Origin: Vermamoeba vermiformis
Taxonomy: Eukaryota
NCBI GenBank assembly: GCA_045837725.1
Contig: JBEWZL010000179.1
Coordinates: forward strand, 186,001-250,000
Direction of reading: 5' to 3'
DNA: 64,000 nucleotides
Shown: in pieces, positions 5,807-64,000 of the stretch
Layout of the letters: every line of letters begins with the position of its first letter
Numbering within the stretch: the stretch's first letter is position 1
Position numbers and translations under genes: made by a program
The notes under the pieces: generated by a model
Seen by the model: only the letters and a program-made list of their open reading frames with translations
Database searches by the model: none
What the model was told of the DNA's origin: nothing

Positions 5807-8290
5807 TTAGAAGCGACCTCCGCGACCACCACGGCCACCACGACCGCCACCAAATCCTCCGCGACCACCGCGGCCACCGAAGCCTCCACGTGATCCACCG
5901 TAACCACCGCCGAAACCACCTCGACCACCACGGCCACCGAAGCCTCCGCGACCACCACGACCGCCGAAACCGCCACCAAAACCTCCACGTCCTTCGTCTT
6001 TTTCAACGAGTTCGGGCAAAGCGTCGGCAACGCTGAAAGTGTATTTGCGGAATTGATGGTGCGCATGCTCTTCTTCGCTTTGCATTTCGAGCAATTGATT
6101 GGCCAATTCATCGGGAACATCGACGACAGCACCGCCTTCAGTGGTCAAGCGAATGTCTCGAATGCCAAGTGTCTTGGCACTGTCGAAATCTTTATCAAAA
6201 ATGCTGCCAATAATGCGGATGATGAAGGAAGTAGATTGAATTTGATGTTGTTCTTGTGTGGGCTCGACGCGCAGAGTAGTGAGACCTTCTTGACTGGTCA
6301 ACAGGGAGCGAGACTTGACGGCGTCTTTAATGCCTGCAACGAATGCCAGAGCTGCAGCAACAGCTTGTTCAGCGCCAAAAGTGTCAATGAATGATGTGGC
6401 GTATTGTTTGAACGATTCAATAATCGTAGGGTCCACTGATTCGAGCTTCTCAATTGACTTTTGAGCAGACACTTTGAAGATGTCAGTGGCTTGAGGACGA
6501 CCGATGCGTGTGAATTTGAAGCCAGCCTTTTGTTCGATGAACTTCAGTCTGAAGGCTGTGCGTTGAGTGTAGAACATAATTGAAGTGCCCAATTTGCCCG
6601 CACGACCAGTACGGCCAGAGCGGTGAATGTAGGTCTCGAGTTCTGTGGGAGGTTGCATTTGAATGACCAAATCGACGCCCGGAATATCCAAACCACGAGC
6701 AGCAACGTCAGTGGCGACGAGGACGGAGAACTTCTTGTCGCGGAATGATTGCAAAGTGACTTCACGTTGAGGCTGAGCAATGTCACCGTGCAAGACTTGA
6801 GCCAAGCTAGCCAAATAAGACGAGAGACCGAGCTCGTTGCACTCTTGTTTAGTCTCGCAGAAAATAATTGTGGATTTGCCTTGACCGTAGACCTTGATGA
6901 TGTCACCCACAGTGCCGACACGAGCAGACATGGGCACTTCAATGGCCAAATGTTTCACGGTCTCAGCGGTCTTGACGCGTTCTTTGCCGACCAAATCGAT
7001 GACTTGGTGGTCGGGTGACAAGTGTGTTCTAGCGACGTTTTTGACCCAATCGGGAATGGTAGCTGAATAGAGCAAAGTCTGGTGCTTCTTGTCCTTGGGG
7101 ATGGCGTCGAGAATGCGCTCAATGTCCTCTTTGAAACCAATGTTCAACATCTCGTCAGCCTCGTCGAGAATAACGAATTCAATGTTGTTCAGCTTCAAAT
7201 TGCCACGCTCCAAGTGGTCAATAATACGACCAGGAGTGCCAACTACAATGTCGAGACCGCGGGCCATAGCATTCTCTTGCGGGGCATAGTCCACACCTCC
7301 GTAAATGCACAACGTCTCCATGCCACGAGCAATCATTTTGAATTGGTCGTGCACTTGACGCGCTAACTCACGAGTAGGAGCCATGACAATGACTTTAGGG
7401 CCACGTCCTCGTGTTTTGGTGGCGGGATTGAAAGTTACTAACAACTTTTCAACCACTGGCAAAGCGAAGGATAATGTCTGGATTATATTTAGATACTGCA
7501 TTCAGTATAACGAACGATTAATTAATTACCTTGCCGGTACCAGTACGAGCACGACCAATAATATCATTGCCATCATAAACGACGTCAAAAGACTTGGATT
7601 GGATGGGGAACAAGCGTTCGAAACCGTTTTCTTTCAAGATTGCAACTGTTTCAGGCGAGACACGGAACTCGCTGATAAGAGGCAGGTCTTCCAAATTTAC
7701 TGTAAAATAACATTAATTAATTTTTAACCTCGATCGCGATCCAGTTTTTAACAACATACCAGCTACGTCTTCTTCCTTCTTGACTGATTTTTTCTCGATT
7801 TTTTTCTCTTCTTTTGGTGCGGGTGCTGCAGCATGACCGTTGGTTTTCGGTTCATCCTCTTCCATCTGATCTTCGTCCTTTTTCTTCTTGTCCTTTTTGT
7901 CCTTCTTATCCTTTTTGTCTTTCTTATCTTTCTTATCTTTTTTGCTCTTCTCCTTGGGCTTGTCGCTGGATTCGTCCGACTGTAGATCACATTAGCAAAT
8001 CAAGACAATTCATAATAATAAACGTACCATATCTGCATCATCGTCAGATGCTTCAACTTTAGGCTTTTTTCTTTCAGGTCTGAATAAAATTAAAATTAGG
8101 AGATCAGATTCGAATCCAGATCGCAGTTAAATTTAATCGTCAGAACACCATAAAAGAATTTGGATAGTAAAATACGAACAATATTATGGGTTTTTTGCTA
8201 TTTATTGTTCACTTACTCCTCGTGATCTCCGTTCAGATCCTCGGGTCTAAATCTCTTTTTAGTTAACTCGCGCAAGGCAGACTTGGACAT
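5807..8290 (-). CDS. DDX21: DEAD-box RNA helicase, DDX21/DDX50-like, with Lys-rich N-terminus, GUCT-like domain and RGG tail
   Basis: ATG at 8290 (MSKSALRELTKKRF). Motifs GRARTGTGKT, APTRELA, DEADEML, SAT, HGDIAQ, ATDVAARGLD and HRSGRTGRAG; C-terminal GGRGGRGGF repeats. Confidence 0.9.
5810..5995 (-). repeat. Coding low-complexity RGG/GGFG repeat (helicase tail)
   Basis: Tandem GGFGGRGGRGG units in the translated tail. Confidence 0.85.
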
Positions 8291-8440: not shown

Positions 8441-11400
8441 TTACACTTTTTCGATCATTTCAAACACGAGATCACCAGCAGAGACGCTATCTCCTTTGGC
8501 AACCTTCAGGGCAGAGATCTTTCCGGTGAACGGCGCTGTGATGGTGACTTCGAGCTTCATGGCGCTGAGAACGATAACTGGAGTGCCCTTTTCGACTGCT
8601 TGACCAGCCGACACTTTAATATCGACAATTGAGCCGGGCAACGGAGCACCAACGTCGCCACGCTTGTTGGGATCAGCACGAGGTCGTTTGACTTCTTCGA
8701 CTGCTGTCTTGATAGGACCAGCAGAGCGTAAAATGAATGGCAGTAACTGAGGTGCAGCTGCCTTGACGTTGATGACGTGTTGTTGACCATTGAGATCGAA
8801 GGTCACGGGGAAAACACCGTCTTGAGCAGTGTTGCTGACTGAGACCGACTTGGCGGTGAACTGTTGACCCATTTCTTCGAATGTGACTGACTCGCCTATG
8901 CTCAGTGGCGCCAAGAAAGGACGAGTTGGCAGATTGGTGACATTTCCAAACTTCACTTGGTGCTCCATGTACTCCTCGAACACCTTCGGGTACTGCACGT
9001 AACTCATTACATCGACGTCGCGCATCTTACGACCCCATTTGGATTCAAGTTGCTGCTTGCACTTTTCAAAGTCAAGGGGCTTCATATCAGCACCAGGACG
9101 ACCTTGCACGCGTGGTTTATCCTTCAACACGCGGGAACGGAAAGGCTCGGGGAACCCGCCGTGAGGTTGACCCAAGTAACCTTGCAAGTATTCAATAACA
9201 GAGCTGGGGAAGTTGAGCTCTTCAGCCTTGTCCAATGTAGCCTGCTTGTTGAGCTTGTTGGCGACCATAAATGATGCCAAGTCACCGACAACTTTGCTGC
9301 TCGGTGTGACCTTGACGATGTTTCCAAGTATTTCGTTGGCTTCAGCGTAAGCTTGTTTGATTTGTTCCCATTCTTCAGCCAGACCCATAGAAATGGCTTG
9401 GAAGTACAAGTTGGTGTACTGGCCTCCAGGAATTTCGTTGATGTACACGTCAGCACCAGCGCTCTTTTGACCGGATTCGAAAGGAGAATACAATCGGCGA
9501 GTGCCCTCCCAGTAAGTAGTGAGCGGCAACAAGTTCTCGAGCTTAACGCCAGTGTCCTTGTTGGAATTAGCCAGGTCATGAATAATGGCACCCATAGCCG
9601 GTTGAGCTGTCAATCCACTCAACGCATCGTTGCAGCAATCCACGGCATTAGCTCCTGCGTTCACGCAAGCCAACATCGAGGCAACACCAGTTCCGGCAGT
9701 GTCATGAGTATGTACATGAATAGGAATATCCGGGAACTCCTTTCGCAGAGCTGAAATAAGGAGGGTCGCAGCTGTTGGTTTCAATAGACCAGCCATGTCT
9801 TTGATGCACAAAACATGCACACCAAGTTTGACAAGATCTCGTGCCATGTTCAAATAATACTCCAGGTCGTACTTGGTCTTGACCGGGCTGAGAATATCAC
9901 CAGTATAGCAAATAGCAGCTTCGATAATACCACCGGCTTGACCAACGGCATCAATACCAAGTTTCATGTTCTCGATGTAATTGAGCGAATCGAAGATGCG
10001 GAAGACGTCCATGCCCGTGTCTTTAGCTTGCTTGCAGAACTTGTAAATCACATTGTCGGGATACGCAGTGTAGCCCACAGCGTTGGCGCCACGGAAAAGC
10101 ATTTGGAAGGGAATGTTGGGAACGAGCTCACGCAACTCGGCAAGACGATCCCAAGGACATTCGTGCAAGAAGCGCAACGCGACGTCGAAGGTGGCACCAC
10201 CCCAGTTCTCAATGCTGTAGCAGTTGGCCAATGCGTGAGAAGTCGCGCGAGCAATGTTCTTCATGTCGATTGTGCGCATACGTGTCATCAACAATGATTG
10301 ATGTGCGTCACGCCAAGTCGTGTCCGTGAGCAGTGCGCCCTTGTGATTCCTCACTGCCTTGACGAAACCAGCTGCACCCTCCTTGTCAAAGATTTGCTTG
10401 AGACCTGGCGGTGGAGGCTGAGACGAGAATACACTGCCTGAGGGATATTCTGGCGATGCCTTGGGCAACTTAGGATTTGACTTGCTTGGAGCAGGTCCAA
10501 CAGCGCCAGGGTGCTTGGGACCGTTGACAGCCATCTCAGCCAAATACTTCGTGATCTTCAGCGCTTCTTCTGTCGCGCGTTGGGTCTGATTTGTACGTTC
10601 ACGTTCGAGTTTCAATTGGATGTCTTGAGCTTTCTTCTGCTTGGCTCTGAACTCCTGCGTCTCCTTTTCAATAGACTTTAGGAATTGGTTGTACTTCTTA
10701 ACGTCCAACACCTCTTCTTTGAAGTCCAACTTCATTTTGCCGCTGGTGAAGTCTGGGCGTTGACGCTCAAGCTCCTCCTCACTAACCTTCTTGAAACGAA
10801 TTTGATCGAACATGTCAAAGAGCCAAGGTTTTTCGGGGCTGAAGTTAGGCAAGTTACCAGCATTGTTCCAAATCGGCAGCGTACGGCCAACCAATTGATA
10901 TCCTCCAGGAGATTCCATCGAGTAGATGCACATATATTGTCCACCAATACCAACAGCTCCTTCGGGTGTGAATGTTCGGGCTGGATTGTATTTGGGAACA
11001 ACCAATCTGTGTCGAGGATCCAATGGCACTGCACAGGGAGCACCTAAGTAGACGTCTCCAAGACCCAACACCAAGTAACTAGCGTTCAGAACGATGTTTT
11101 CTACATCTTTAGGACCATCAAGTCCGTTGTTCTTCGCTATGAAGTCAACGTTCTCGGGCAAATAGAGAGCTTCCGAACGAATGCTTTTCATGTATCTGTC
11201 GATGGCCTGTCTGTTCCACTTGTCTTGGAATGCAAGAGGAAGAGTGAAAACACGGCTCTTGAGCTTTACGTCGTCTGACTTTGGTAATTCGTCTTCAGCA
11301 GTTGTCAAAATATTCATCAAATCGTTCAACGGTAGTTTTCTGTTATCGTAGTAGATCAGCATGTTACGCACACCGGGGATCGTGTCAATCAGGCCAGTTA

Positions 11401-12959
11401 TTTTCTTCTTGCGGAGGTACTCTTCCAAGAAGTGAATACGAACACGAGTATTAATGTCCAGAACCAGCTCGCCATATTCTACCAAAACATATCTATCACC
11501 AGCAATGCGGTACTCGACCTTGGGACGAGTGGCTGTTGCTTCCATTCGCGTTATTAGAGCGCGATCCCCGTGCTTATTCTCTTTCGATACAGCCACACTC
11601 GGTGCGGAAGCTTTCTTTTCTGATTGAAGCTGAAGAGATGCGATTGAATCGTCAACAGCCTTGCGAGCAGCTAGAGCTTGGTCCATATTTACGCGACGGA
11701 ATTTAATTTTATCGCCGGGCTTGACTTGACCAATCTTCCACATTTGATACGAAGGGATTGTGATAGGACAAACAAAACCGCCTAAACTAGGGCCATCGAC
11801 GGTCAAAAGTACGGGATGATCACCAGTAAAGTTAATCGCACCAATGGCGTAGGGGCTATCGTTGATGTTAGAAGGGTGACTACCTCCTTCACCGCCGTCA
11901 GGACGCGCGAACTTTGGCTTGGATCCATTTGATATTAGGCGCACCCCCAATCGACTGGCATTGTGTGTAACTTCGAAGGTAGAAGTGAACAAGCTAGCAA
12001 TGTCCTCGTTTGTAAAGTACTCTGGAGCCTCTTGCGGACCAAGCAGAACATCAACGTTCCATTCAGAAGTTATTGCTGGGACTAGAGACTTCGGAAGTGT
12101 TCTTTCGGCAGCCTTTGAAGATGGTTTTCCGAAGTACAATTCGTCGTTTGCCTGCAACTGACGACCCTGTTCATTTGTGTTAGAGAAGTCACGATGCACG
12201 ATATTAGCTTAATCTTACATCTGCTCCACCAAACTTGCCCAAAGGGAAAGTTGCTTTGCTTCCCAAGTATTTTGGAACGTCTATACCGCCTGGAACAATT
12301 CATTAGTCAAATTTAAAATTGAGGTGGTACAAAAATGACGTACCAGCAATAGCAAGATAAGTGCGCGCACCGCATCCCTCTATCTTTCCGAGCTTCAATA
12401 CGCTTCCTTTTTTTACGGCCACTGAGGTCCACCAAGGAACAGGTTTACCATCCAAATCTGCCTGCATCTGAGCGCCAGTGATGGCGACGAAAGTATCCTG
12501 ATTGAATTGTATAGTAGGGCCTGTGAAGGATAACTCTAGAGCGGCAGCGCCCTCTTCATTGCCGACAAGCACGTTGGCGAGACGAAAAGAGTAGTCATCC
12601 ATCGGGCCAGATGGGGGTACACCAACTCGCCACAACCCTTCTCGACCAGGGAAATCTTGAATTAAAGAAAAAGTTCCAGGGCTGAGAATTTTTACGGAGT
12701 GATCCGGAAACGCTGGAGACCGCGGATGAACAACTGAATCCGGATTCACCTTTTGTGTTGAATAGCTCGTGTATTGCAAGGCATCTGATGCGCACATTCC
12801 ATTTGAGACTCCACAGGCGTGGAACAAAGCCTTCTTTCTCGCTTTTTCTCGTACACTTTTCTGGATGGACCATTGAAGTCCAGCCCTCAGTGAAGAGCTG
12901 CCCTTATTTAGTGAAAGGTATGTGCCAGGTACCCGAAGACACGCTCTCAGTCCTAGCAT
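8441..12959 (-). CDS. Fusion of urea-carboxylase carboxyltransferase (CT_A_B + CT_C_D), pyruvate-carboxylase carboxyltransferase and biotinyl domain; no biotin carboxylase domain; putative mitochondrial presequence
   Basis: Three exons (~12959-12344, 12289-12219, 12166-8441). UC motifs: QDFPGREGLWRVGVPPSGPMD, HPSNINDSPYAIGAINFTGD, GLGDVYLGAP, KYNPARTFTPEGAVGIGG. PC motifs: TDTTWRDAHQSL, WGGATFDVALRFL, IKDMAG, HVHTHDT, VKVTPSSKVVGD. Biotin-carrier motif SAMKLE. Confidence 0.9.
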
Positions 12960-13750
12960 GTTGTCCGTGTGAGTAAAATAAACGGTTACAAAAAAAAAAT
13001 GTTTATAAAAATCGCGTGCCTCGCTTCTCATTGGTCCGTTCAAATAAATTTGTTTAATTAAACACAATTTTATGTACCTACACATAAATCAATTGTTACT
13101 AGTAACATACCATGCTTCGTCCGTGCGTAGCAAGATCAGTGTAAAAAGTGCTCCTCTAACCTGGCCGAATTATGTGGGACTACAGTAGAGAGGCAAGCCA
13201 AAGGTGTTAACAATTCAACGCACGCTATTGACAGTATTAATAAGGTTCATGTAGCCGAAGCAACAGAAATTACCCTTATCTATTTCTCTCGGAAAGTAAA
13301 ACGAGTTATTTTTCATTAATTAACAAAAAATATATTAATGCGTAGTTAAACAACGATGTTATCTGTTTGTAATATCAATCCACTGTAATATGAAAGATTT
13401 CATTTATTTTGAATTTTCTTCATAATTATTTATAATACCTTTTTGCCGAAGAGGGTTACGTTTTTAGAGCATGGACGAGGAAAGTATTTGTTCGTGGTTA
13501 TGGCGGTAGAATACGAAGGTCTACAAAAACTGACAAACGTGTTTGATCTTTGGACACCTGTTGTGCATAATAGTATTTCGAGCGCTAGCCTTGTTGAGAC
13601 ATTGATTTAATTAAATTGTATCGCATTTATGTCACACTGAAGTCGAGTACACCACATGTATATCATCAACACTATATAAATAACACATATATCACAAAAC
13701 TAGGTTGCTCGAATTACAGATCTGACACTTTTTTGTTGCTAGTAACATCG

Positions 13751-14787: not shown

Positions 14788-16939
14788 TTAAGGAGTGATA
14801 CCGAGTTGCTTGTAGGCAGTGGCGATCTTTTGGATGGCGCTAACGAAGGCAGCAAGTCTCAAAGAGCAGTTCTACAGGACACGACATTAGTGGCCAGTTC
14901 TAATGTACATTGCAGTGTTGTAATACATACCTTTTCGTGAGAGATGGCGCGAACTTGTTCGTAAGCAGTGGCCATAGTGTCCAAGAGACCAGAGCGGACC
15001 AAATCCAACTCTTCAGGACCACGAGGAGTGATCTTCTTGTGAGCAACGTGCTCAAGGGTATCAGTGATCTCCTTGATTTGGGCCTCAGTGAATCGCTTAG
15101 TCTATTATAAAAAAAAAGCGCGGTTAGTAACGGTAACAAATAGTTCTGGATCTTCACTCCACTTACCAAACGACCGAAGCGAACGTGTTGAATGTTCTTC
15201 AACCACTCGAAGTATGAGACGACGACACCACCAGCATTGCAGAGAATGTCGGGGATGATAAGAACACCCTTGTTGTAGAGGATCTTGTCGGCGTCAGCAG
15301 TGACGGGACCGTTGGCACCTTCGGCGATGAGCTTGGCCTTGATCTTGTGAGCGTTGTCCTTGGTGATTTGACCTTCGAGGGCAGCAGGGACGAGAATGTC
15401 GCAGTCGAGTTCGAGACCTTCAATGGAGGGGATGATGACAGACTTGGCGCCGGGGAACTTGTTGAGCTCGTTGCCCTTCTCCTTCCACTCCCACAAAGCA
15501 GGGATGTCAAGACCTTCGGGGTTGTACAAGCAGCCGTTGGCCTCAGCGATGGCGACGACCTTAGCACCGTTCTCGTGCAAGAACTTGGCGCTGAAGGAGC
15601 CGACGTTACCGAAACCTTGAACGACAACACGCTTGCCAGCAATACCAGGGGTGAGACCCATCTTCTTGACGTCATCAGCGTAGCTCAAGGCCTCACGGAC
15701 GGCGTAGAAAACACCGAGACCGGTGGCTTCGTTACGACCACGAACACCTCCTTGGGTCACAGGCTTACCAGTGACGCAAGCAGTGGCGTTCAAGTCCTCG
15801 CTGCGCATAGCCTCATAGGTATCCTTGATCCAAGCCATTTCACGGGGACCAGTACCGACGTCAGGGGCGGGCTAGGAAACAAGTTTAGGTAAGAAACGAG
15901 GTAGTTTCGTAATGAGGCCTAATACTTACGACGTCGAGGGCAGGGCTGAGCATGTTCTTCTTGATCAACTCAGAAGCATAACGACGAGTGATAGCTTCCA
16001 ATTGGCCAGCGTTGAACTTGCGGGGGTCAATCTTAACACCACCCTTGGCACCACCGAAGGGAACATCGACAACGGCGCACTTGTAGCTCATGAGAGAAGC
16101 CAAAGCGACGACTTCCTTCTCGGAGACGTGAGTGCTGAAGCGAATACCTCCCTTCATGGGCAAACGGTGAGGGCTGTGTTGGCATCTCCAAGCCTCAACG
16201 AGGGTAGTGTCGTGAGTGCCAGTTTTCTGAACGGAATGGGGTTAATCGCGGGTAATATAATTAATTATAATTAATTTTAAAATATTAAATATAAATTTGT
16301 GCGCTAAAGTGGTAGACAGAAAATTGGTAAATCTTGAGCTTAATCCACTTACGGGGTTGTAGTCCATCTTGACGGGGAAAGAAACCTTGTAGACGGAGCG
16401 GCAGACTCTAGAAAGGGCGATTGTCAGTATAAGGGCACATAAGGACGCAATCTAAGCCTACCTGATAACATCCAAAATGTTTTGAGGAATCTCGGGCAAG
16501 AGCTTGGCAGCCTCGTTGAAGAAATGCTCGGTGGAAGCCAAGAAGGTGTTGTCATCAGGAGCACCAGTGTTTTGAGCGTTGCGCTTGGCCGAAACGGTGA
16601 AGCTGCAAGATTTGACCGTTAGAAGATGCATTGAATTAACTCTCAAAAATTAGCAAGAAAATCCACGAAAATGTGGTCGGATAGGTATTCAGTCGATCTT
16701 TAGATTAGTGGGGTGGGTAAATTCATTCAGATGAAAGGAAATTAATTAACCGCAACCCTATATCAAGTGCGACACTGTAAGGCGGGCGATCAATACCTTC
16801 GAGTGGCAGTCTTGGAGGTAGTACCAACCAAAGCGGTCTTTAAATACAGAGCTCCGTTAGTCAAGGGATGGGGTAGTTTGAGGTGTTTCGTGTCACTTAC
16901 GCTGCGCTTGGAGGTTTGGCGAAGAACTTGCGAGAGCAT
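14788..16939 (-). CDS. GDH: Glutamate dehydrogenase, NAD(P)-dependent, probably mitochondrial; multi-exon
   Basis: Motifs [57 protein letters not shown] and [15 protein letters not shown]. Arg/Ser-rich N-terminus [13 protein letters not shown]. Confidence 0.95.
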
Positions 16940-27707: not shown

Positions 27708-29266
27708 ATGCAAGCAACTAAGTTGATACAACGAGTTTATTCAACCGCTGCTAGCTCGATTCGAGATGCAATCAAAGCGTCTAATAACGCAGTCATCGAG
27801 AAGTTGCAATCTCCTGAGCTCTACCTGACAGACGTAGCGCCAGCCAAAGATTATATACCGGCCATTGCGAATAAAAAAGTTATATTGGCCTCTGGACCAC
27901 CAGTGGAGTGGCAGAAAAGACACGAAATCCAAAAGGGCGCCATAATTGGTCAAGTACTCTTTGAGAAGTGGGCAGACAATTCCCAAACAGCTCGCAAGTT
28001 ACTAGATGAAGGCACAATCGTGGTAGAAAGTTGTAACGAACACAACGCGGTTGGTCCACTCACCGGTACAATTAAATAATAAATTGATTTTAAATTTAAA
28101 ATTATCTCCGCTAACAGATTACTTAGGAACGATATCCCCCAACTTTCCAGTATTTGTAGTCGAGAATAAAAAGCACGGTACTCGTTCTTTCAGCAGAATC
28201 GCCGAAATGTGGGAGATGTGGGGAAACCACGATAAACTTCCGAATCTACTATCTTGGAATGAAAGATATGCGCCTGCATTGCAAAGAGCACTTCGAAGCA
28301 TGAAAGGAGGCCTCTATTTGAACCCTTTATTAGCCCAAGCTCTGGAAATGGGCGATGACAACGGCAACAGACAGATCGCACTCACGCTGCTGCTGAACAA
28401 CAGTTTGGCCTTGCATATGCTCAACAACGGCTTTACTTCAGGTACGTAGTGTGCTGACTACACTCCTCGCTCACTGGCCTGGCAGATGACATTCGCACAG
28501 CCCTCGAAGTGCTGAACATTCCCAGTGGGGGCGGCGGAGGTCCCCGCGCTGTGATAGGCATATCAATGGCTGCAGCCAAAGCAGCGATCATACCCGCTGA
28601 GAACACACCCTACTCGACCATTGTCACGAACATGGCGCGCAATGGTGCACTGTGGGGCATTCAAGTCGCAGGTCTGGGCCAGCAGTGGTTCACAGTGCCA
28701 GCACCCCTGCCCAACGTCGTCAACTTCCACGACAATCCCAACACGAGTAAGTGCGACTAGTGCGTGAGTGCGCGACTAACCAGTGCTGCAGAGGTGCCCT
28801 ATCAGCAGTCAGATCGTTGTCCAGACATCGGTGGCGATGCGTCCATTCACGAGACCTTTGGATGGAGTGGCATGGCACTCTCAGCGGCCTCACAGCGCTT
28901 CTTGACCATGCTCGGAGACTTGACTGTCGAACAGGCATTTGCGTACAACAAAGAGGTATGTGAAGTGACAGGCTGCAATGTACTGACACGCGACAGATGC
29001 AACACATCAGCACTGGTCTCTCCAGCAAGTTCTTCGTGCCAGCACTCGGCAGCAAGACCATGATTGGCTGTGCACTGGGCATTGATGCTGCCAAAGTGCT
29101 CAAGTCAGGCATTGCACCGCTGATTGACACTGGTGTGGCCAACAAACAGCTCGGCCACAGCGTCATTGCGCGAGGTCTCATTCGTGCACCCATTGCGTGC
29201 TTCGAACAGGCACTCACCGCCTATTGTGAGCGGTACAAGACTAGCCTCGACTCGTTGCTCAATTAG
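27708..29266 (+). CDS. DUF1116 (YlbE/AllG/YahG-like) family protein, divergent copy; multi-exon
   Basis: ILASGPPVEW, GAIIGQVLFEKWA, CNEHNAVGPLTG, ALEMGDD-GNR, VTNMARNG, DIGGDASIHETFG and GIDAAKVLKSGIAPLIDTG are colinear with the DUF1116 half of the 44985-48212 gene. Confidence 0.85.
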
Positions 29267-43200: not shown

Positions 43201-44088
43201 GACGAGGACAGCATGGACAGCTTTGATCTCGATATGGAGGGCGCAGACGACGCGTTCTTCAAGGCGTTTGATCTGGAAGAGAAGGAGTCGAGCAAGCTAG
43301 ACGACGACTTCAACAGCCTCATGTCCTCGCTCAACAATCCCAGTGTCCTCGCGGCCAATGACGACGATCTCGCCTCGCTGCCCTCGCTGCCCTATGAAGT
43401 TGACTCCATTCAGAAAGCACTGCACGGCCTCAAACTGCTCGAGTCGAATGACAGCTCGTCCACTGAGCCTAAAAATAGCACCAAGACGGACAGCGGTCTC
43501 TCCACGCCCTCCTCCATGCCCTCCACACCCACCACGGCTCCGAGCTCGCCCTTCACCCCTGCGCCCGTCGCTGACATTGCCACGCAGTTGAGTGACATCT
43601 TTGACAAGTCGCAGGTCCGACGTGTGTTCAAGAGCTTTGTCGGTGAGTAGATTGCCTTATTTGGCAGTGCCAGCATACTAACCCTACCCCTTGCTGCAGA
43701 GAAGAACAATCTCGACAAGACACTCGTGGACTTGGCCGAGGCACTGTACGACTATCGCAACAACATCATCTCGAGCACGTCGTCCATGTCCACCAAGGCC
43801 AAGCTCATCATGCAGCGCTTCTTCCCCAAGAGTTCTTCCGCTGCGAGCTCGAGCAGCATACCCGAGGCACTGAAGCGCGAGACGATCAAAGCCTATGAGA
43901 CTGCACTGCTGTCAGGTACTGTCGCATTGCACCGCACGTGATGCATATATTCACCTTCTTCCTAATTAGGCAAATTCTCCAAGTCATTGTTCGAGAAGAT
44001 TGAAGCAATTACCACCCAGATATTGAACCGCGACTATTTCCCGCTGTTTGTCAAGTCAGATCTATTCGCGCAGATCAACCAGAGCTAA
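34233..44088 (+). CDS. Furry/Tao3/Mor2-like giant helical-repeat protein with C-terminal RGS-like domain; multi-exon
   Basis: The N-terminal VILNSIFKVF and MIQSISQVAQYNFEVLFSLLLAW segments resemble the MOR2-PAG1 N-domain, followed by ~9 kb of helical exons. The last exons read RRVFKSFVEK...AKLIMQRFF...SLFEKIEAITTQILNRDYFPLFVKSDLF, an RGS-type pattern. Confidence 0.6.
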
Positions 44089-44149
44089 AACACTTGTAAT
44101 TATTGTAAAACTTATTTATTGTGCTCTAACTGTTATGTACTGGTGCGTA

Positions 44150-44770
44150 TTAACTGCCGCGATAAGTGCTGAAGCCGTAAGGACTCAATATGAGTGGTAT
44201 GTGATAGTGCTGCGCGAGATCTGACTGCTTGAGCTCGAAGATGATCGGCACTTTCGGGTACAAGAAGTGTTGGATCTGCTTGTTGTCAAAGTACTCCGCA
44301 GTGTAGAAGGTCATGCGATAACGTCCTACTCCTGGCAATGTCACACCAAAGTCCTTGCTCGTTACACGTCCATCCGCGCTTGTCACGCCACTCGCCAACA
44401 ACTGCCACTTGCCTAATTTAATTAATGAGTAAAATAATGGCATAACTATATGCTTGCTTATTGATGAAAATTCGGCTACGTAACGTGATAATTAAATTGG
44501 AGAAGTTCAATTTCAATAATTAATTTAACACAACAGCGTAGTTAATTAATTACCTTGTTGATCTTTAATGTGTAATTTCAAGCGCAATCCGCTCGCAGGT
44601 TTTCCACTCTGGGTGTCAAGCACATGCGAGGAGATGGTGGTCTGTTTCTCCGTATTGTGCGTAGCAGACTGCTCAATATGTGCAGAAGAGTGATTAGTTG
44701 CCATATTGCTCACACTGGGTGCAATGTGTCCGAGTATTGTGTGCAGTCGTGTTGCTGCGTTGTGTTGCAT
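44150..44770 (-). CDS. URAH: 5-hydroxyisourate hydrolase (transthyretin-like) with PTS2; 2 exons
   Basis: ISSHVLDTQSGKPASG, DGR, HYHIPLILSPYGFSTYRGS* (YRGS signature). N-terminal RLHTILGHI fits the PTS2 consensus. Confidence 0.95.
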
Positions 44771-44984
44771 GTTTGGCAATGAGTTCAATACCGTTGAAGG
44801 GCTTGATACTGAATAGAGCAAGGCACCGCTCATCAATGCTGTACTCATATTTAATGCCATGCAGGTAACGGATAACGCAGCTCGATATCTCAGAATACGA
44901 ATCGACCACGTGATTTCAGGTACAATATTTTATTTTAGTTTTGTGCATAAATTTATCTTTAGTATCCCACAAAACTGCACTATC
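44771..44984. promoter_or_regulatory. Putative bidirectional promoter between HIU hydrolase and the FdrA-DUF1116 fusion
   Basis: Only ~214 bp separate two divergent start codons. It contains a CACGTG at 44907 and an AT-rich tract; function is inferred from geometry. Confidence 0.5.
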
Positions 44985-47900
44985 ATGGCACATCAAGGCA
45001 TTAAAGTGTTGAAAGACACGTACAGAGACTCGGTGGAGTTGATGCAAATCGCATCTGGCCTCGAACGGTCCTTTAAAGGAGTGAAGGCTTCTGTGATGAT
45101 GGCAACTCCCGCATTTGTAGAACTACTTGCCAAAAGTGGAGTAGATGTGCCTGCTGAATTAGCTGCCAATGATTTAATCATCCATGTGAAAGCGGATGCA
45201 CCAGACGTTCTCCAAGCAGCACTGGAGAGCGGCGTCAAATCGATCACAGAAAACAAGAGCGCTAGTGCTCACGAGTCCATGGAAGTACCAAAGCCCACTA
45301 CTATAGCAGAAGGAAGCAGTATTCAAGGAGGTTCAAATTTGGTGCTGATCTCGGTGCCTGGTCAGTACGCGACAGCTGAAGCGATGAAAGCACTCAAACG
45401 AGGTGCGCACGTGTTCATGTTCAGCGACAATGTGCCACTCGAAGATGAAATTGAGCTGAAACAGTTCGCCCAAGAGCGCCACTTGCTGCTGATGGGTCCT
45501 GACTGCGGCACGGCACTCATCGACGGACTGCCCCTGGGATTTGCGAATGTGGTTCGCAAGGGGTCGATTGGTCTCGTGGGTGCATCGGGCACGGGACTGC
45601 AACAAGTGTCGAGTCTGATCGATCGCTACGGACACGGTGTGAGTCAGATGATTGGCGTGGGGGGCCGTGACTTGGACGATGCAGTGGGCGGTGCGATGAT
45701 GTTGCAGGCCATGCAGCGTCTCATGCAAGACCCTGCCACCGCCGTCATCGTGCTCGTGTCCAAGATACCGGGCACGCACGTGACTGCTAAGATCTACGAC
45801 CTCGTGCGCCGCTCACCCAAGCCAGTGGTGGTCAACTTCTTGGGCGGTGATCCACAACCCATATTAGGCAGTGGTGGCATCTACGCCGCGACACTCGAGG
45901 ACGCAGCGCTGCTCGCAGTCAGTGTGAGTGAAGGCAAGCCCCGTGTCCGCGACAGCACTCCATTGACAGCAGTGCCATCACGCGCTGGTCACGTGCGCGG
46001 TCTGTACAGTGGTGGCACCCTGTGCAAAGAGGCCAAGCTGATCTTCCAGCAGACATTGGGTGCGGAGGCCGCACAGCACACACTGATCGACTACGGTGAG
46101 AGCGAGTACACCGTGGGCAAGGCACATCCCATGATTGACTTCAGCACGCGCAATGCAGAGCTCGTCAAAGCTGCGGCAGATCCGAACACTTCCGTCCTCT
46201 TGTTCGATGTGGTGCTCGGATATGGCGCGAATATGGACCCCGTTGGTCAACTAGCCCCTGCATTGATGGCAGCCACTGAACTGCGCAGCAAGCAGAATCG
46301 ACCAATCACATTCATTGCTTCGGTGTGCGGTACTGCCTCAGATCCGCAAGACATGCAGCAGCAATCAGACAGACTCGCACAACTAGGGGTTATATTGGCC
46401 GCATCCAATGCTGAGGCTGCGAGACTGGCGCTGTTCGTCGCTACAGGCCAGCGTGTCACACCCGCAGCAGTGTCGCTGAACAAGAGCCGTGCAGCGAGTG
46501 CAGCAGTGCAGAGCAATCCGCTGTTGAAGGAGATTAAAGCACTCAATATCGGACTGAAACACTTCGCAGAGCCGATCAGCAAGAGTGGCGGTCAAGTGCT
46601 GCAACTCGATTGGAAGCCACCAGCAGAGGGCCACCGAGCACTCGGACTGCAGCTGGCACGCCTCGAGGACGACAGTGCGGGGGTGGGTCAGAGAATCAAA
46701 CTGGCCAATGACGAGGCCTTGCAACGACTGCAGAAAGGACTGCCCGTGTGGACTGGTGTGGCACTGGCGCGCGAGGTGATACCAGGCATGGGCACACGCA
46801 CCATCCTGCACAGCGGTCCTCCAATCACGTGGCGCGCCATGTGTGGTCCGATGAAGGTGAGTACTGCCAGTGCGTGCATGACGTGTTGACACGTGTCACA
46901 GGGTGCGGTGATTGGTGCCATTCTGTACGAGGGCTGGGCGCAGAGTCCTGAAGAGGCAGAACAGCTCGCAGCACGCGAGATCAGCTTTGCACCATGCAAC
47001 GATCACCACGCAGTCGGTCCCATGGCAGGCATCATATCGCCCAGCATGCCCGTCGCCATCGTGGAGAACAAGACATTCGGCAACAAGGCCTACGCAACCT
47101 TCAACGAGGGACTGGGTCGTCGATTGCGCTTCGGTGCGTACGATGCGAGTGTGATGGAGCGACTGCACTGGATCCGGAACGTGCTCGCCCCCGTGCTGCA
47201 ACAGATCGTCGCTGCACACCCGATTCAGCTCAAGACCATACTCGCACAAGCACTGCAGATGGGCGATGAGTGTCACAATCGCAACACAGCTGCCACGTCA
47301 CTGCTGACACGTCACCTCGCCCCGCTGCTGTTGAGCACGGTGCGCGACACGAGTCAGGTGCTGTCCATCCTCGAGTTCTTGCGCGACAACGACCACTTCT
47401 TCTTGAACCTCTCCATGGCCTGTTCCAAGTGCATGCTGCAGGCTAGTGCGGACATGGACGCGAGCAGTCTGGTCACCATCATGAGTCGCAATGGCGTCGA
47501 GTTTGGCATTCAGATGAGTGGCACGGGCAACACGTGGTTCACCGCGCCCTCACCCGTGGTGGACGGACTCTACTTCCCAGGTACGCGGTGCACTGTGCGC
47601 GAGTGTTGCTGATGTGTTGACAGGGCGTACCAAAGCTGATGCCAATCCCGATCTGGGCGACAGCAGCATCACCGAGACAGCTGGCTTTGGTGGCTTTGCG
47701 ATGGCAGCATCACCCGCCATTGTTCGCTTCGTGGGTGGCACGGCGCACTCAGCCCTGCAACACACGCTGCGCATGTACAAGATCACACTCGGTAAGAATC
47801 CTGACTACGCCATTCCGAGTCTCAATTTCAGTGGCATCCCTCAGGTAAGCACTGGGCGCTGCATTACATAGGACTGCACCATGGACTCACGTGCGCTGAT

Positions 47901-48212
47901 CAGGGCATTGATGCACGTCGCGTGGTGGACAGTGGCATTGCGCCAGTGATCAACACGGGCATTGCACACAAGCAGCCAGGCATTGGACAGGTCGGGGCGG
48001 GCATTGCACTCGCACCACTCAGTCCATTCGCAGCCGCACTGGGCGCACTCAGCAGCAGACTCCTGCACAAGACCTCGCAGCACAAGAACACGCGTGCCTA
48101 CTCCACGCAGATTGTGCGTCGTCACGTGCCTGGCCACACATTGGTGGTGCGCAGAACAGCTGTGGCGTCAGTGCTGCGCGTGTTGAAGCGTGCGGTGACA
48201 CTGCTCAAGTGA
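44985..48212 (+). CDS. FdrA(AllF)-YlbE(AllG, DUF1116) fusion; succinyl-CoA-synthetase-like fold plus DUF1116; putative oxamate carbamoyltransferase-like enzyme; 4 exons
   Basis: FdrA motifs: YRDSVELM, ISVPGQYA, MFSDNV, MGPDCGT, GASGTGLQ, GVGGRDL, GLYSGGTLC, HPMID, DWKPPAEG. DUF1116 motifs: LHSGPPI, HHAVGPMAG, NEGLG..LRFGA, ALQMGDECHNRN, NDHFFLNLSMA, MSRNG, DLGDSSITET, NTGIAHKQPGIGQVGAG. Confidence 0.9.
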
Positions 48213-48265
48213 AGTACGTTGTAAAGGGAACTAGTGTATTTGAAAATAATACAAGACGGGGGTAA

Positions 48266-49206
48266 TTACATCTTAGACTTGGGCTTGGTGATAGTCGCGT
48301 GAATGAAGCCGCTCGGTTCATCGACGGGAATGAGCAGATCCGGTGTGTTTTCGAGCTTGAGCTTGGTGAAGTCGATCGTCCAGTTGTGAATGTTGGGCAT
48401 GGTCAGCGTGATGTTCTCAACTTGCGCGAGACGAGTGACGACCTTCTCGCCCGCAGAGTGAATGGTGCGCTGCACTGAAGGGCTGTACTCTGTCGCAAAG
48501 GTGCTGAACACCAGCGCGAGCACTTTGTTCCACGTGTCATTGAAGTCCACTGACTTGTAGCCACCGCGCACTGCTTCGGGGGTGTAGGTCCACACTGCTT
48601 GGACCTTGGTGCCGAACAATCTGTCAGCAACATCAGGCAGAGTGGTGTAGCGGCAGCGATGGAAGTTTTCGAAGCCAGATCCAGTCGTCTTGAGCACTTG
48701 CAAGTCGCGCACACCAGATTCGACCACTGCTGGGGCTCCACGAGGGGCGCTAATCTTAGCGGTGCGCACATACATAGCCTTCACGAACGAATGACCGTGC
48801 GGCTTGCCGTTGACGGGCATGCGCTCCCAGATGTCCTCCGTGATCTCAACATTGACTTTCTTTACGTGGCTGTATTCGCTGAGGAATTTTGCCGCCAATG
48901 CTTGACCATACTCTTCGATTGACTTGATGGGGTGGTCACGGGCAACAACGTAACTGAATTTAATTAAATTAGTAACAATTTTCATGAAATAAATTCAGGA
49001 TGGAGTTTTATGACATACACCATGTTTTTGCAGGTATCAGTAGGAACGACTTGAGAGTTGTCATCAGAGGTAAAACTCTTCTGGAAATCTCCTTCCAACA
49101 AGACTGCAACGTTGAGTTGCTTCAAGTCGTGATTTTCCTTGGAGTGGCGCGTGACCTTGACCAAGCGGACCTTGATCTTGCCGTAAGTATCGTAAGTAAT
49201 GGACAT
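48266..49206 (-). CDS. UOX: Urate oxidase (uricase) with PTS1 (SKM); 2 exons
   Basis: YGKIKVRLVKV, DNSQVVPTDTCKN, VLKTTGSGFENF, TLPDVADRL, SPSVQ and MPNIH; ends KSKM*. Confidence 0.96.
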
Positions 49207-49533
49207 GATTGCGGTGTTGTGTGAGTGTTGTGCTTGATGTTGCAAAATAGAAAATACCTGTTCGGCAAAGAATGGACGAAAAAGAATGTTTGGAAAAAAT
49301 CGGCGCTTCGTTCAGTGAAACAAACAGATTGCGATGGAGATTGCGAAAGAAGGCGTCTTAACATTAAGCATTCAGTACAGTGCCCCTAGCCATGTGTATA
49401 TACGTGGATGAAAGAGACGTGCGTTGTGAATCAATATTATACATTTATTCGGGCGCCGCTAATGAAATCTCTGCTAGTAGTCCCAGCGCATATATGCTTG
49501 AGTATACGCTATACTAGATATAAGACTAGCAGC

Positions 49534-60525: not shown

Positions 60526-63500
60526 ATGGATCCTCTAGAATTATTGAAGGTAATCATTACGTTATTTTAATTTTGAATTATTTTGTTTTGTATTTATGCT
60601 GAAATGATATTGCAACAATTTTAATTCGAGTGTACCCTCATAAATCATAAAAAGAGACTGCTTGTTGATTCTGTTTCTGGATAATATAATAACTGCTTAA
60701 TCGTTAGTGCTTGCACGCACTCAGAGATGGAGACTTTTCAGTGCGGTTATCTGCCGCAAGTTCAGGAGCAGCCAATGCTTTACCAGATGATATTTCACGC
60801 GAGATCGCAGCAGCTTTTAATGATGTAGCCTCCAGACATCAAGCTTTATTATCAGAATTACAACGAGTAAGCACAGCAGTTGGCAAAGAAGGAATTATTA
60901 CAGAACGAATGGACATGCATCCACTGGGAGACGACGAAAAACCTATTCAATTAGAAGGAGATTGGTCGGAGTGCTTTGAATCAATCAACGTATTAGTAGA
61001 AGACTTGACTAGACCCACTACCGAAGTTGTAGGCGTGGTTGAAGCAGTCGCCAGAGGAGATTTGACAAAAACAATGAGATTGGATTCAACCGGTATCCCT
61101 CTGAAAGGTAATTGACAGCAAATACTGCATCAATTCCTTAATTTCTGTTCTTTCGATTGTACTAACCGACATTTTGCCAGGTGAATTCTTGCGAATGGGT
61201 GTCGTGGTCAACACCATGGTCAGCGAGCTCAAGGTGTTCGCTTCTGAAGTCACTCGTGTGGCCCGCGAAGTCGGTGTCGAAGGCAAGCTCGGCGGTCAAG
61301 CCAACGTGAAGGGCGTTGCTGGCACTTGGAAAGATCTCACAGACAGTGTCAACATTATGGCTGCCAACTTGACCTCTCAAGTACGTGCCATTGCCGAAGT
61401 CACAACTGCAGTTGCTCGAGGCGACTTATCAAAGAAAATCACAGCCGACGTGCGAGGCGAGATTTTAGAACTTAAGAACACAATCAACACGATGGTCGAT
61501 CAGTTGAACTCTTTTGCTTCTGAAGTCACTCGTGTCGCTCTAGAAGTAGGAACTCAAGGCAAACTTGGTGGCCAAGCCAACGTCAAGGGCGTAGACGGAA
61601 TTTGGAAAGATCTCACTGACAATGTAAATATTATGGCTGCCAACTTGACTTCCCAAGTCAGAGCTATTGCTAAGGTTGCTACCGCCGTCGCCAACGGAGA
61701 TTTATCGAAGAAGATTACTATCGACGTACATGGAGAGATCTTAGAGCTCAAGAACACCATCAACACGATGGTCGACCAGTTGAGTACCTTTGCTCGAGAA
61801 GTCACTCGTGTCGCTCTTGAAGTCGGAACAGAAGGCAAACTCGGTGGCCAGGCTGTAGTGAAAGGAGTTGGTGGAACCTGGAAAGATCTCACTGACAATG
61901 TAAATATTATGGCCGCCAACTTGACCTCTCAAGTACGTGCCATTGCCGAAGTAGCCACTGCTGTCGCCAACGGAGATTTATCGAAGAAGATTGCCATCGA
62001 CGTGCACGGAGAGATCTTAGAGCTCAAGAACACCATCAACACGATGGTCGACCAGTTGAGTACCTTCGCCCGAGAAGTCACTCGTGTCGCCTTGGAAGTA
62101 GGAACAGAAGGCAAGCTCGGTGGTCAAGCCATTGTGAAAGGTGTTGGTGGAACCTGGAAGGATCTTACTGACAACGTCAACATTATGGCTGCCAACTTGA
62201 CTTCTCAGGTCAGAGCTATTGCTGAAGTAGCCACTGCTGTCGCCAACGGAGACTTGTCCAAGAAGATTACTATTAATGTCCATGGCGAGATTTTAGAGCT
62301 CAAGAACACCATCAACACGATGGTCGACCAGCTGAGTACCTTCGCCCGAGAAGTCACTCGTGTCGCTCTTGAAGTCGGAACAGAAGGCAAACTCGGCGGT
62401 CAAGCCATTGTGAAAGGCGTCGGTGGAACCTGGAAAGATCTCACAGACAACGTAAATACGATGGCTGCCAACTTGACCTCTCAGGTCAGAGCTATTGCTG
62501 AGGTAGCCACTGCTGTCGCCAATGGAGACTTGTCCAAGAAGATCACTATCGACGTACTCGGTGAGATTCTAGAACTTAAGAATACCATCAACACGATGGT
62601 CGACCAACTGAGTACCTTCGCCCGAGAAGTCACTCGTGTCGCCTTGGAAGTCGGAACAGAAGGCAAGCTCGGCGGTCAAGCCATTGTGAAAGGAGTTGGT
62701 GGAACCTGGAAAGATCTCACTGACAATGTGAATACGATGGCTGCCAACTTGACGGGACAGGTGCGTGCCATTGCCGAAGTGACAACCGCAGTAGCCAACG
62801 GAGACTTGTCCAAGAAGATTACGGCTGATGTCCAAGGAGAGATCTTGGAGTTGAAGAACACAATCAACACCATGGTCGACCAACTTAACACCTTCGCCCG
62901 AGAAGTCACTCGTGTCGCCTTGGAAGTCGGAACAGAAGGCAAACTCGGCGGTCAAGCCAACGTCAAGGGCGTCGGTGGAGTCTGGAAGGATCTCACTGAC
63001 AACGTCAACATTATGGCTGCCAACTTGACTTCTCAAGTACGTGCTATTGCTGAAGTCGCCACTGCAGTAGCCAACGGCGATCTTTCAAAGAAGATTACTA
63101 TCGACGTACTTGGTGAAATCTTGGAGTTGAAGAACACAATCAACACGATGGTCGACCAACTTAACACCTTTGCTCGAGAAGTCACTCGTGTCGCTTTAGA
63201 AGTCGGAACAGAAGGCAAACTTGGTGGCCAAGCCAACGTGAAAGGTGTTGGCGGAGTCTGGAAAGATCTAACCGACAATGTAAATATTATGGCTGCCAAC
63301 TTGACCTCTCAAGTCAGAACCATTGCCGAAGTGACAACCGCTGTTGCGAGGGGAGACTTGTCCAAGAAGATTACAGCTGACGTACGCGGTGAAATCTTGG
63401 AGTTGAAGAACACCATCAACACGATGGTCGATCAACTGAGTACCTTCGCCCGAGAAGTCACTCGTGTAGCCCGCGAAGTCGGCACAGAAGGCAAACTTGG

Positions 63501-64000
63501 TGGTCAAGCCAACGTCAAGGACGTGGCAGGCATTTGGAAGGGTCTTACCGACAATGTCAACACGATGGCTGCCAATCTAACGAACCAAGTACGTGCTATT
63601 GCTGAAGTAGCCACTGCTGTCGCCAACGGAGACTTGTCCAAGAAGATCACTATCGACGTACATGGAGAGATTCTAGAACTTAAGAACACCATCAACACCA
63701 TGGTCGATCAACTGAGTACCTTCGCTCGAGAAGTCACTCGTGTCGCTCTTGAAGTCGGAACAGAAGGCAAGCTCGGTGGCCAAGCCATTGTGAAAGGAGT
63801 TGGTGGAACCTGGAAAGATCTCACTGACAACGTCAACACGATGGCTGCAAACTTGACTTCTCAAGTACGCGCTATCGCTGAAGTCACCACTGCAGTAGCC
63901 AACGGCGATCTTTCAAAGAAGATTGCAGCTGATGTCCAAGGAGAGATCTTAGAGCTCAAGAACACCATCAACACGATGGTCGACCAGTTGAACTCTTTTG
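60526..64000 (+). CDS. Poly-HAMP sensor, N-terminal part of a group III (Nik1/Os-1-like) hybrid histidine kinase; runs off the window
   Basis: MDPLELLK micro-exon, then [13 protein letters not shown]. An open frame from ~61181 repeats [65 protein letters not shown]. The kinase core is not visible. Confidence 0.85.
61240..64000 (+). repeat. Coding tandem array of 276-bp (92-aa) HAMP repeats, at least 10 units
   Basis: GAAGTCACTCGTGT recurs every 276 nt (units begin near 61240, 61516, 61792, 62068, 62344, 62620, 62896, 63172, 63448 and 63724). Confidence 0.95.

Follow-up and report, generated by a model that had tools for sequence, protein, structure and literature searches.

A fused, intron-bearing FdrA/AllF and DUF1116/AllG gene in a urate gene cluster of Vermamoeba vermiformis: a candidate enzyme of ureide breakdown

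What would a pair of bacterial enzyme subunits do as one intron-bearing gene of an amoeba, placed between two genes of urate breakdown? The locus that raises this question lies in a 64,000-nucleotide (nt) stretch of the Vermamoeba vermiformis genome (GenBank assembly GCA_045837725.1, contig JBEWZL010000179.1, positions 186,001 to 250,000), hereafter the window, in which a single gene joins an FdrA/AllF-type part to a DUF1116/AllG part. In PMC11326118, on which all statements made here about the biochemistry of the Escherichia coli enzyme draw, AllF, AllG and AllH make up an oxamate carbamoyltransferase (OXTCase) with the reaction oxalurate + phosphate <-> oxamate + carbamoyl phosphate, an activity that had no known gene until 2024 and is described there only as a three-gene bacterial enzyme. 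We propose that a bacterial F-G gene pair was acquired by a eukaryote, in which introns specific to the lineage and a basic C-terminal tail were added, that the resulting single chain of 1026 amino acids (aa) joins the two large subunits of an FdrA/DUF1116/DUF2877 family enzyme, and that it would catalyse one of the late reactions of urate/ureide breakdown, forming carbamoyl phosphate, most likely from oxalurate. Judged from its sequence, the gene is probably, if not securely, a domesticated bacterial F-G fusion that encodes an OXTCase-type enzyme of ureide breakdown, with oxalurate the likeliest substrate.

The gene runs on the forward strand from an ATG at 44985 to a stop codon at 48210-48212 in four exons (Table 1), and the original prediction, which had described a single FdrA and DUF1116 frame interrupted by three introns, proved exact to the coordinate, the spliced coding sequence (CDS) of 3081 nt giving the 1026-aa protein with zero internal stops. 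Read from the ATG, the frame reaches GTGAGT after 46856 and a stop 33 nt beyond; if left unspliced, introns 1 and 3 bring in-frame stops and introns 2 and 3 shift the frame. Translated searches (tblastn) map E. coli FdrA residues 1-555 to 44985-46667 and E. coli YlbE residues 8-416 to 46704-48062, the latter split into three segments whose ends meet the predicted splice sites. All three junctions fall in gap-free conserved stretches of an alignment of seven homologous rows (P0003, P0004, P0126 and P0127 as unbroken fusions, P0006 and P0071 as partial sequences, with E. coli FdrA+YlbE as a display row), and removal of the introns at their GT..AG ends restores collinearity with the intronless fused homologues. 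Furthermore, a related strain represented by an X1 contig carries a 7-nt deletion at 47852, inside intron 3, and 10 of the 13 listed exon 1 differences between that strain and the window are synonymous, 40 more differences lying over the compared stretch beyond the 13 listed. An insertion or deletion in the intron together with mostly synonymous exon differences is the pattern of an intron in a constrained coding gene, and the fusion gene appears to be under purifying selection. The intron calls rest on homology, in the form of this collinearity, the GT..AG ends and the strain's intron 3 deletion, from which we infer splicing in vivo.

Almost all members of the family are prokaryotic, and contamination by bacterial DNA or a chimeric assembly has to be considered, but the three introns lie within the CDS and both flanks are eukaryotic genes with RNA-confirmed introns, on a contig where eukaryotic genes with introns abound. 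A second, 99%-identical assembly (P0001) and a relative of about 80% identity (P0002 cluster) have this locus too, with intron 1 at the same place, open reading frame (ORF) calls in both ending a few codons into the intron; in the relative, two contigs of 622,662 and 636,932 nt carry both the fusion orthologue and the helicase. We give contamination practically no credence, in agreement with what the original prediction had argued from the introns.

Both halves belong to their families, with scores above the curated cut-offs and the conserved residues kept. NCBIfam FdrA NF004760 matches aa 8-560 with 487.6 bits (cut-off 433) over profile positions 6-554 of 555, exon 1 also matches PF00549 (Ligase_CoA, E 3e-34) and PF02629 (CoA_binding, E 1e-8), and exon 2 matches AllG/DUF1116 PF06545 with E 7e-88 and 294.2 bits against a gathering score of 27; among structures in the Protein Data Bank (PDB) the matches are the FdrA entry 3dmy (E 5e-84) and the DUF1116 entry 3clq (E 7e-59, in exon 2). 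Every one of the 66 columns that are at least 95% conserved among 83 FdrA rows is kept in the FdrA half, as are 92 of the 93 such columns among 92 AllG rows in the AllG half. These domain matches agree with the earlier reading that the protein passes from FdrA through a DWxPPAxG module into the start of DUF1116 within exon 1. The HPMID motif, previously taken for a putative phospho-histidine site, is invariant in 10 fused proteins with its His in the second domain; we reject its equation with the phospho-histidine of succinyl-CoA synthetase since the positions do not correspond, the phospho-histidine of the synthetase alpha subunit having its weakly aligned counterpart in a Ser elsewhere in the fusion protein, and HPMID may or may not have a catalytic role. 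Beyond the AllG domain, positions 48063-48209 encode a 49-aa basic C-terminal tail with an R-A-Y-S-T motif; E. coli YlbE has no such tail, three fused homologues (P0003, P0004 and P0131) end in comparable tails with [YF]-S-T, and the motif may be a targeting or docking element.

The strongest functional clue, absent from the original prediction, comes from the neighbouring genes. A 5-hydroxyisourate (HIU) hydrolase gene (PF00576) and a uricase gene (PF01014) directly flank the fusion gene, which thus stands in a purine (urate) catabolic cluster, the former head to head with a gap of about 280 bp to the fusion ATG and the latter tail to tail with 53 bp between the stops. Three consecutive genes point to urate breakdown, and this arrangement makes a late step of urate/ureide breakdown the most likely role for the fusion. 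Both flanking genes are expressed and spliced in the X1 and X2 contigs. The uricase ends in S-K-M, which we take to be a peroxisomal PTS1-type tripeptide, and as the fusion has no such ending the neighbouring enzymes may occupy different compartments. The OXTCase-type role rests on family biochemistry, on the PucR and carbamate-kinase context of the relatives described below, on the uricase and HIU hydrolase flanks and on the invariant positions; the substrate, the reaction and a coupling to carbamate kinase are predictions.

The origin of the gene was followed in trees of the two halves (quick IQ-TREE runs with approximate likelihood-ratio, SH-aLRT, support only), a check that the original prediction had itself suggested. 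The G-half tree of 95 rows, from which P0130 and P0002 were dropped as too short, places the window in a set of 13 rows with starred support of 95, made up of seven fused proteins (the window, P0127, P0126, P0131, P0152, P0003 and P0004) and six metagenome-assembled genomes (MAGs), of which L002, L003, L006, L015 and L035 are labelled Chloroflexota and L007 Verrucomicrobiia. The F-half tree has 84 rows, P0002, L004, L034, L074 and L063 having been removed, and joins the window with nine other fused proteins at a support of 87 (not starred), within a set of 17 rows (96, starred) that contains L002, L003, L006, L007, L015 and L018. That both halves share the same nearest bacteria fits one transfer of an adjacent F-G pair; together with a GC content of 0.577 and a third-position GC content (GC3) of 0.64 in the fusion gene, close to uricase (GC3 0.675), it also fits the domesticated horizontal acquisition proposed earlier. 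The loci of two of these nearest MAGs, L002 and L006, hold a divergent PucR gene followed by AllH, FdrA, AllG, an AA_kinase-family gene (carbamate-kinase-like) and an isochorismatase.

Several observations weigh against the proposed role, and they are best taken together with the alternatives they favour. RNA data over 43800-49400 came from two sets of Logan contigs, X1 and X2, whose kind is a guess, and two raw RNA-seq runs, X7 and X8, with the same species label. The X1/X2 contigs have lost the 141-nt intron of the HIU hydrolase, the 65-nt intron of the uricase and a 54-nt intron of the upstream gene, and with these neighbouring introns spliced out they behave as RNA. Intron 1 of the fusion gene is nevertheless retained in an X1 contig (46822-47385) and an X2 contig (46653-46990), intron 3 is retained in an X1 contig (47707-48112), intron 2 is crossed by no listed X1/X2 contig piece, and a spliced joint at any of the three introns was not seen in X1, X2, X7 or X8. 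The retaining contigs have depths of 3-5, and in the same runs the HIU hydrolase (depth 7) and the upstream gene (5.4) are spliced. X7 and X8 reads cover the uricase and its edges and none fall on the fusion gene, which says nothing firm on expression. The retention of introns 1 and 3 in low-depth contigs could represent intron retention or pre-mRNA. One could read these data as a decaying or poorly expressed gene, its introns inefficiently removed and little or no full-length protein made. Against this the frame is intact, all but one of the 159 highly conserved columns are kept, the listed strain differences are mostly synonymous as given above and the orthologue of about 80% identity has the same intron 1 site, while a depth of only 3-5 is low and contigs cannot measure splicing efficiency; we consider decay very unlikely.

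Also on the opposing side is the lack of pathway partners in the window. AllH (DUF2877, PF11392) was found neither by Pfam on 101 of the 113 window ORFs of at least 110 aa (the other 12 overlap the fusion and uricase genes, the largest being covered as exon pieces), nor by tblastn with E. coli YlbF over the 64 kb (best E 0.87), nor by a profile built from YlbF and 48 MAG AllH ORFs and run on all six-frame window ORFs from 25 aa upwards (best E 0.1, for a match within a coiled-coil gene). Tblastn of the window with E. coli YbcF and AllD, for AllK and AllD, gave chance matches only (E at least 2), the Pfam scan of window ORFs held no AA_kinase or Ldh_2 domain, and the 64 kb contain no AllC or AllE homologues. 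An ESM Atlas search with a MAG AllH listed three clusters of 93-100% bacterial membership, the clusters of at least 50 members that it covers being uninformative on a eukaryotic AllH. Eukaryotic pathway genes are usually scattered, and a single 64-kb window carries little weight on absence. The earlier remark that no partner was in view stands for AllH within the window, but it overlooked a second DUF1116 gene 16 kb upstream.

The original prediction had gone further and suggested a self-sufficient single-chain enzyme in which AllH is no longer needed. In E. coli (PMC11326118), the binding of AllH to the other two subunits was weak when they were purified, and with allFG alone oxamate reached 7% of the wild-type level, which leaves some room for this version and at the same time counts against our own; allGH alone restored 16%. 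The same experiments had allF, allG and allH each needed for oxamate formation, with the allH deletion blocking it, and the nearest bacterial relatives L002 and L006 as well as both bacterial fusion loci examined (L043 and L067, with AllH about 4 kb downstream) keep AllH. The negative AllH searches in the window speak for an AllH-free enzyme, but we regard it as doubtful. AllF and AllG were present in similar amounts on the E. coli gel, and equal amounts of the two fit a fusion.

The second DUF1116 gene is a stand-alone paralogue, 32-40% identical to the AllG part of the fusion. Of the 93 conserved AllG columns 53 are kept, the Glu and His of MGDExH are gone, and in the G-half tree its branch of 5.75 changes per site has no secure position. 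An orthologous ORF in the relative (P0286, 74% identity) shares its first intron site and was the one relative recovered by a word-based search with the paralogue's exon 1. The N-terminus of the paralogue resembles a mitochondrial presequence and has nearby an R-V-Y-S-T similar to the R-A-Y-S-T of the fusion tail; the protein may be a pseudo-enzyme or an accessory subunit. A fuller version of the proposed pathway can be drawn with it, in which urate passes through allantoin, ureidoglycolate and oxalurate before yielding oxamate plus carbamoyl phosphate on a single-chain AllF-AllG, AllH is dispensable or replaced by the DUF1116 paralogue and the basic tail targets or anchors the enzyme. In this full form the scheme is rather improbable; if true, it would be the first eukaryotic OXTCase and a new subunit make-up.

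The remaining point against an oxalurate enzyme comes from the tree position. In a 63-row tree, built with the paralogue, P0189 (a long branch) and 31 loci omitted, the window clade (95, starred) lies apart from YlbE with P0135 (100, starred) and from the YahG clade (99, starred), the deeper forks being unsettled, and so the substrate is drawn from context only. The gene could also encode the same type of fold and chemistry in a third, uncharacterised branch of the family, like YahEFG, acting on another ureido or carbamoyl compound or in another nitrogen-heterocycle pathway. Besides the separate clade, the near-equal identities to the two E. coli systems (FdrA 37.9% vs YahF 38.1%; YlbE 47.0% vs YahG 45.1%), the H-F-G-carbamate kinase order of the nearest MAGs, which is that of yahEFG-yahI and not of allFGH, and the position of the L043 and L067 fusions beside cyclase, thiolase and xanthine-dehydrogenase-like genes would all be accommodated. 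The direct uricase and HIU hydrolase flanks, the PucR-type purine-catabolism regulator at the nearest MAG loci examined and the fact that oxalurate is the only substrate proven for the family (PMC11326118) argue the other way, and we consider a different substrate unlikely, if worth keeping in mind.

The predicted FdrA-DUF1116 fusion is not unique to this genome. A word-based search gave four fused proteins (P0003, P0004, P0006 and P0071) among the best 120 of 7999 scored candidates, and an exhaustive representative search gave 4229 proteins at E <=1e-3, with fused length and a match through the junction in 10 of the best 150 (P0003, P0130, P0131, P0132, P0135, P0152, P0155, P0169, P0170 and P0189). 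Named fused members are Stenamoeba stenopodia (EukProt; Amoebozoa, Discosea), the EukProt model g2359.t1 and the partial Anaerolineae MAG protein MBN1954655.1, and P0003, P0004, P0126, P0127 and P0132 lie on contigs that barely exceed their ORFs (3.07-3.29 kb), a transcript size that fits mRNA. Among 160 bacterial, archaeal and metagenomic loci, 128 cover both halves: a Sphaerochaeta and a Caldiserica MAG have single-ORF fusions, in 18 loci both genes share a frame with a stop between them, and 108 use two frames. Loss of a single stop codon would thus often suffice for a fusion. This is the stricter count, as counts by longest ORF or by a junction-spanning high-scoring segment pair overcalled fusions, owing to spurious long ORFs in high-GC DNA and to segment pairs that run through a stop or start at residue ~515. 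The fused forms fall in several separate tree branches. As a separate observation, the 788-aa protein P0200 joins DUF2877 (AllH) to FdrA, and a fragment in its 90% cluster is named Desulfosporosinus.

The same loci, with 80 metagenome loci (P0127 scan, pattern QMGDECHN, <=64% identity) used for the gene-border count only, tell where the joint lies. Of the 126 unfused loci, 122 have the border ahead of the DWxPPAxG module, in the region that matches residues 485-515 of the window protein, which makes the stretch around aa 485-514 the fusion linker of this lineage. E. coli allF carries the module in FdrA (555 aa; YlbE 419 aa), and in YahF (515 aa) and YahG (472 aa) the border comes before it. 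The module is therefore normally the N-terminus of the DUF1116 protein, the border between the genes having moved in evolution, and its change of gene from one bacterium to another hints at a bridge between the two subunits.

Table 1. Coordinates of the fusion gene, its protein parts and neighbouring genes (positions in the window; aa, residues of the fusion protein)
Feature	Position	Strand	Details
Exon 1	44985..46856	+	624 codons, phase 0; FdrA part, linker, module, start of DUF1116/AllG part
Intron 1	46857..46901	+	45 nt, GTGAGT...CAG
Exon 2	46902..47580	+	DUF1116/AllG core including MGDECHNRN motif
Intron 2	47581..47623	+	43 nt, GTACGC...CAG, phase 1
Exon 3	47624..47844	+	AllG domain continued, ANPDLGDSSITET
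Intron 3	47845..47903	+	59 nt, GTAAGC...CAG
Exon 4 and stop	47904..48212	+	AllG domain ends near 48062, then basic tail
FdrA/AllF-type part	aa 1 to ~485
HPMID motif	aa 381-385, 46125-46139
Linker	~aa 485-514		poorly conserved
NIGL...DWKPPAEG module	~aa 515-560, 46527-46664		DWKPPAEG at aa 542-549, 46608-46631
DUF1116/AllG part	from ~aa 565
HIU hydrolase (transthyretin-like)	44150..44704 (5' end approximate)	-	PF00576 E 8e-23; predicted start codon; exons 44150-44411 and 44553-~44704; intron 44412-44552, spliced out in X1/X2 contigs
Uricase	48266..49206	-	291 aa; PF01014 E 7.5e-41; exons 48266-48953 and 49019-49206
Stand-alone DUF1116 paralogue	27708..29266	+	5 exons, 455 aa; no FdrA part, no DWxPPAxG module
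Glutamate dehydrogenase	14903-16241	-

Elsewhere in the window lie genes for a myosin V, a DDX21-type helicase (5810-7501), PSME4, a filamin/leucine-rich-repeat (LRR) protein and a MOR2/PAG1-like protein. Two sequences in JGI data match the helicase at 94-95%; its best matches with a species name, in Phalansterium and Pyxidicula (both Amoebozoa) and in Flabellula, reach 48-50% identity. Two adjoining long ORFs on the reverse strand at 8444-13088, probably one gene, carry CT_A_B and CT_C_D domains (KipA/KipI-type carboxyltransferase) together with HMGL-like, PYC_OADA (pyruvate-carboxylase-type carboxyltransferase) and biotinyl domains, no biotin carboxylase domain being seen in them, an unusual architecture near nitrogen-metabolism genes (glutamate dehydrogenase). 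At 60708-63999 on the forward strand a histidine kinase with at least 10 HAMP repeats runs off the window end; its architecture is presumably that of the fungal Nik1 type.

A conserved, intron-bearing fusion in a urate cluster suggests a recovery of purine ureido nitrogen by way of carbamoyl phosphate, and not of urea, in some protists. The fusion also suggests that a single chain with AllF and AllG in equal amounts can be functional, and the wandering of the DWxPPAxG module between genes points to a tight F-G interface with repeated fusion and fission. The locus would furthermore illustrate how part of a bacterial operon was domesticated by a eukaryote and acquired introns specific to its lineage, and would exemplify a small eukaryotic metabolic gene cluster. 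E. coli AllF-AllG-AllH is the only characterised member of the family, and our search of the open full-text literature (subscription journals lie outside its scope) found no paper on a eukaryotic or fused form of the enzyme. The accessible portion of PMC11326118 deals with the three-gene E. coli enzyme only, with "fused" and "eukaryot" absent from it and "fusion" used once, for a lacZ reporter.

Comparison with known systems begins with E. coli, in which, as the original prediction had stated, the genes are separate and accompanied by a DUF2877 third partner, seen as fdrA-ylbE-ylbF and yahE-yahF-yahG. Both large subunits of AllFGH are present and collinear in the fusion, with the FdrA and YlbE identities given above (blastp), and with 38% against FdrA and 43-60% per piece against YlbE (tblastn), and for E. 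coli allF/allG as for the fusion neighbouring genes provide a tie to purine/ureide breakdown. The fusion differs in being one polypeptide, in its introns, its 49-aa basic tail and its eukaryotic host, in lying outside the YlbE branch and in having no allH, allK or allD nearby. E. coli YahE-YahF-YahG with YahI (carbamate-kinase-like) belongs to the same family and shares the gene border before the DWxPPAxG module, and the H-F-G-kinase order of the yah genes is that at L002 and L006; YahG, however, sits in its starred clade with Firmicutes and the yah genes are unfused. Succinyl-CoA synthetase alpha matches the FdrA part in its CoA_binding and Ligase_CoA folds, at E values from 1e-15 to 1e-10 across aa 78-305, but its MGHAGA phospho-histidine weakly corresponds to a Ser, the fusion has no beta-subunit partner, and the reaction of the E. 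coli relative differs from that of the synthetase.

Among fused forms, the bacterial L043 (Sphaerochaeta MAG), L067 (Caldiserica MAG) and P0130 (Anaerolineae, partial) have the same domain order with no stop between the parts. Unlike the window gene they have no introns and lie in other branches of both trees, which indicates independent fusions, and in L043 (6914-16145) and L067 (6920-17065) the fusion is followed by a putative cyclase, a thiolase, AllH and xanthine-dehydrogenase-like subunits, with a GntR gene in L043 only, a context that differs from the allantoin operon. Closer are Stenamoeba stenopodia (EukProt EP01102; P0071/P0127), P0003, P0004, P0126, P0131 and P0152, which have the two parts fused with the linker at the same position, show 45-50% identity with the window protein and belong with it to the starred sets of both half-trees, although P0126 and P0127 lack the tail. 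On a genomic contig that is Stenamoeba-like, the ORF is interrupted after aa 371 and again before aa 583 but continues through the sites of the window's three introns, whereas the window fusion has no introns at those break points, so that the introns of the fusion gene are lineage-specific. Set beside these systems, the fusion gene is a variant of a known enzyme system: eukaryotic, fused, intron-bearing and placed in a urate cluster.

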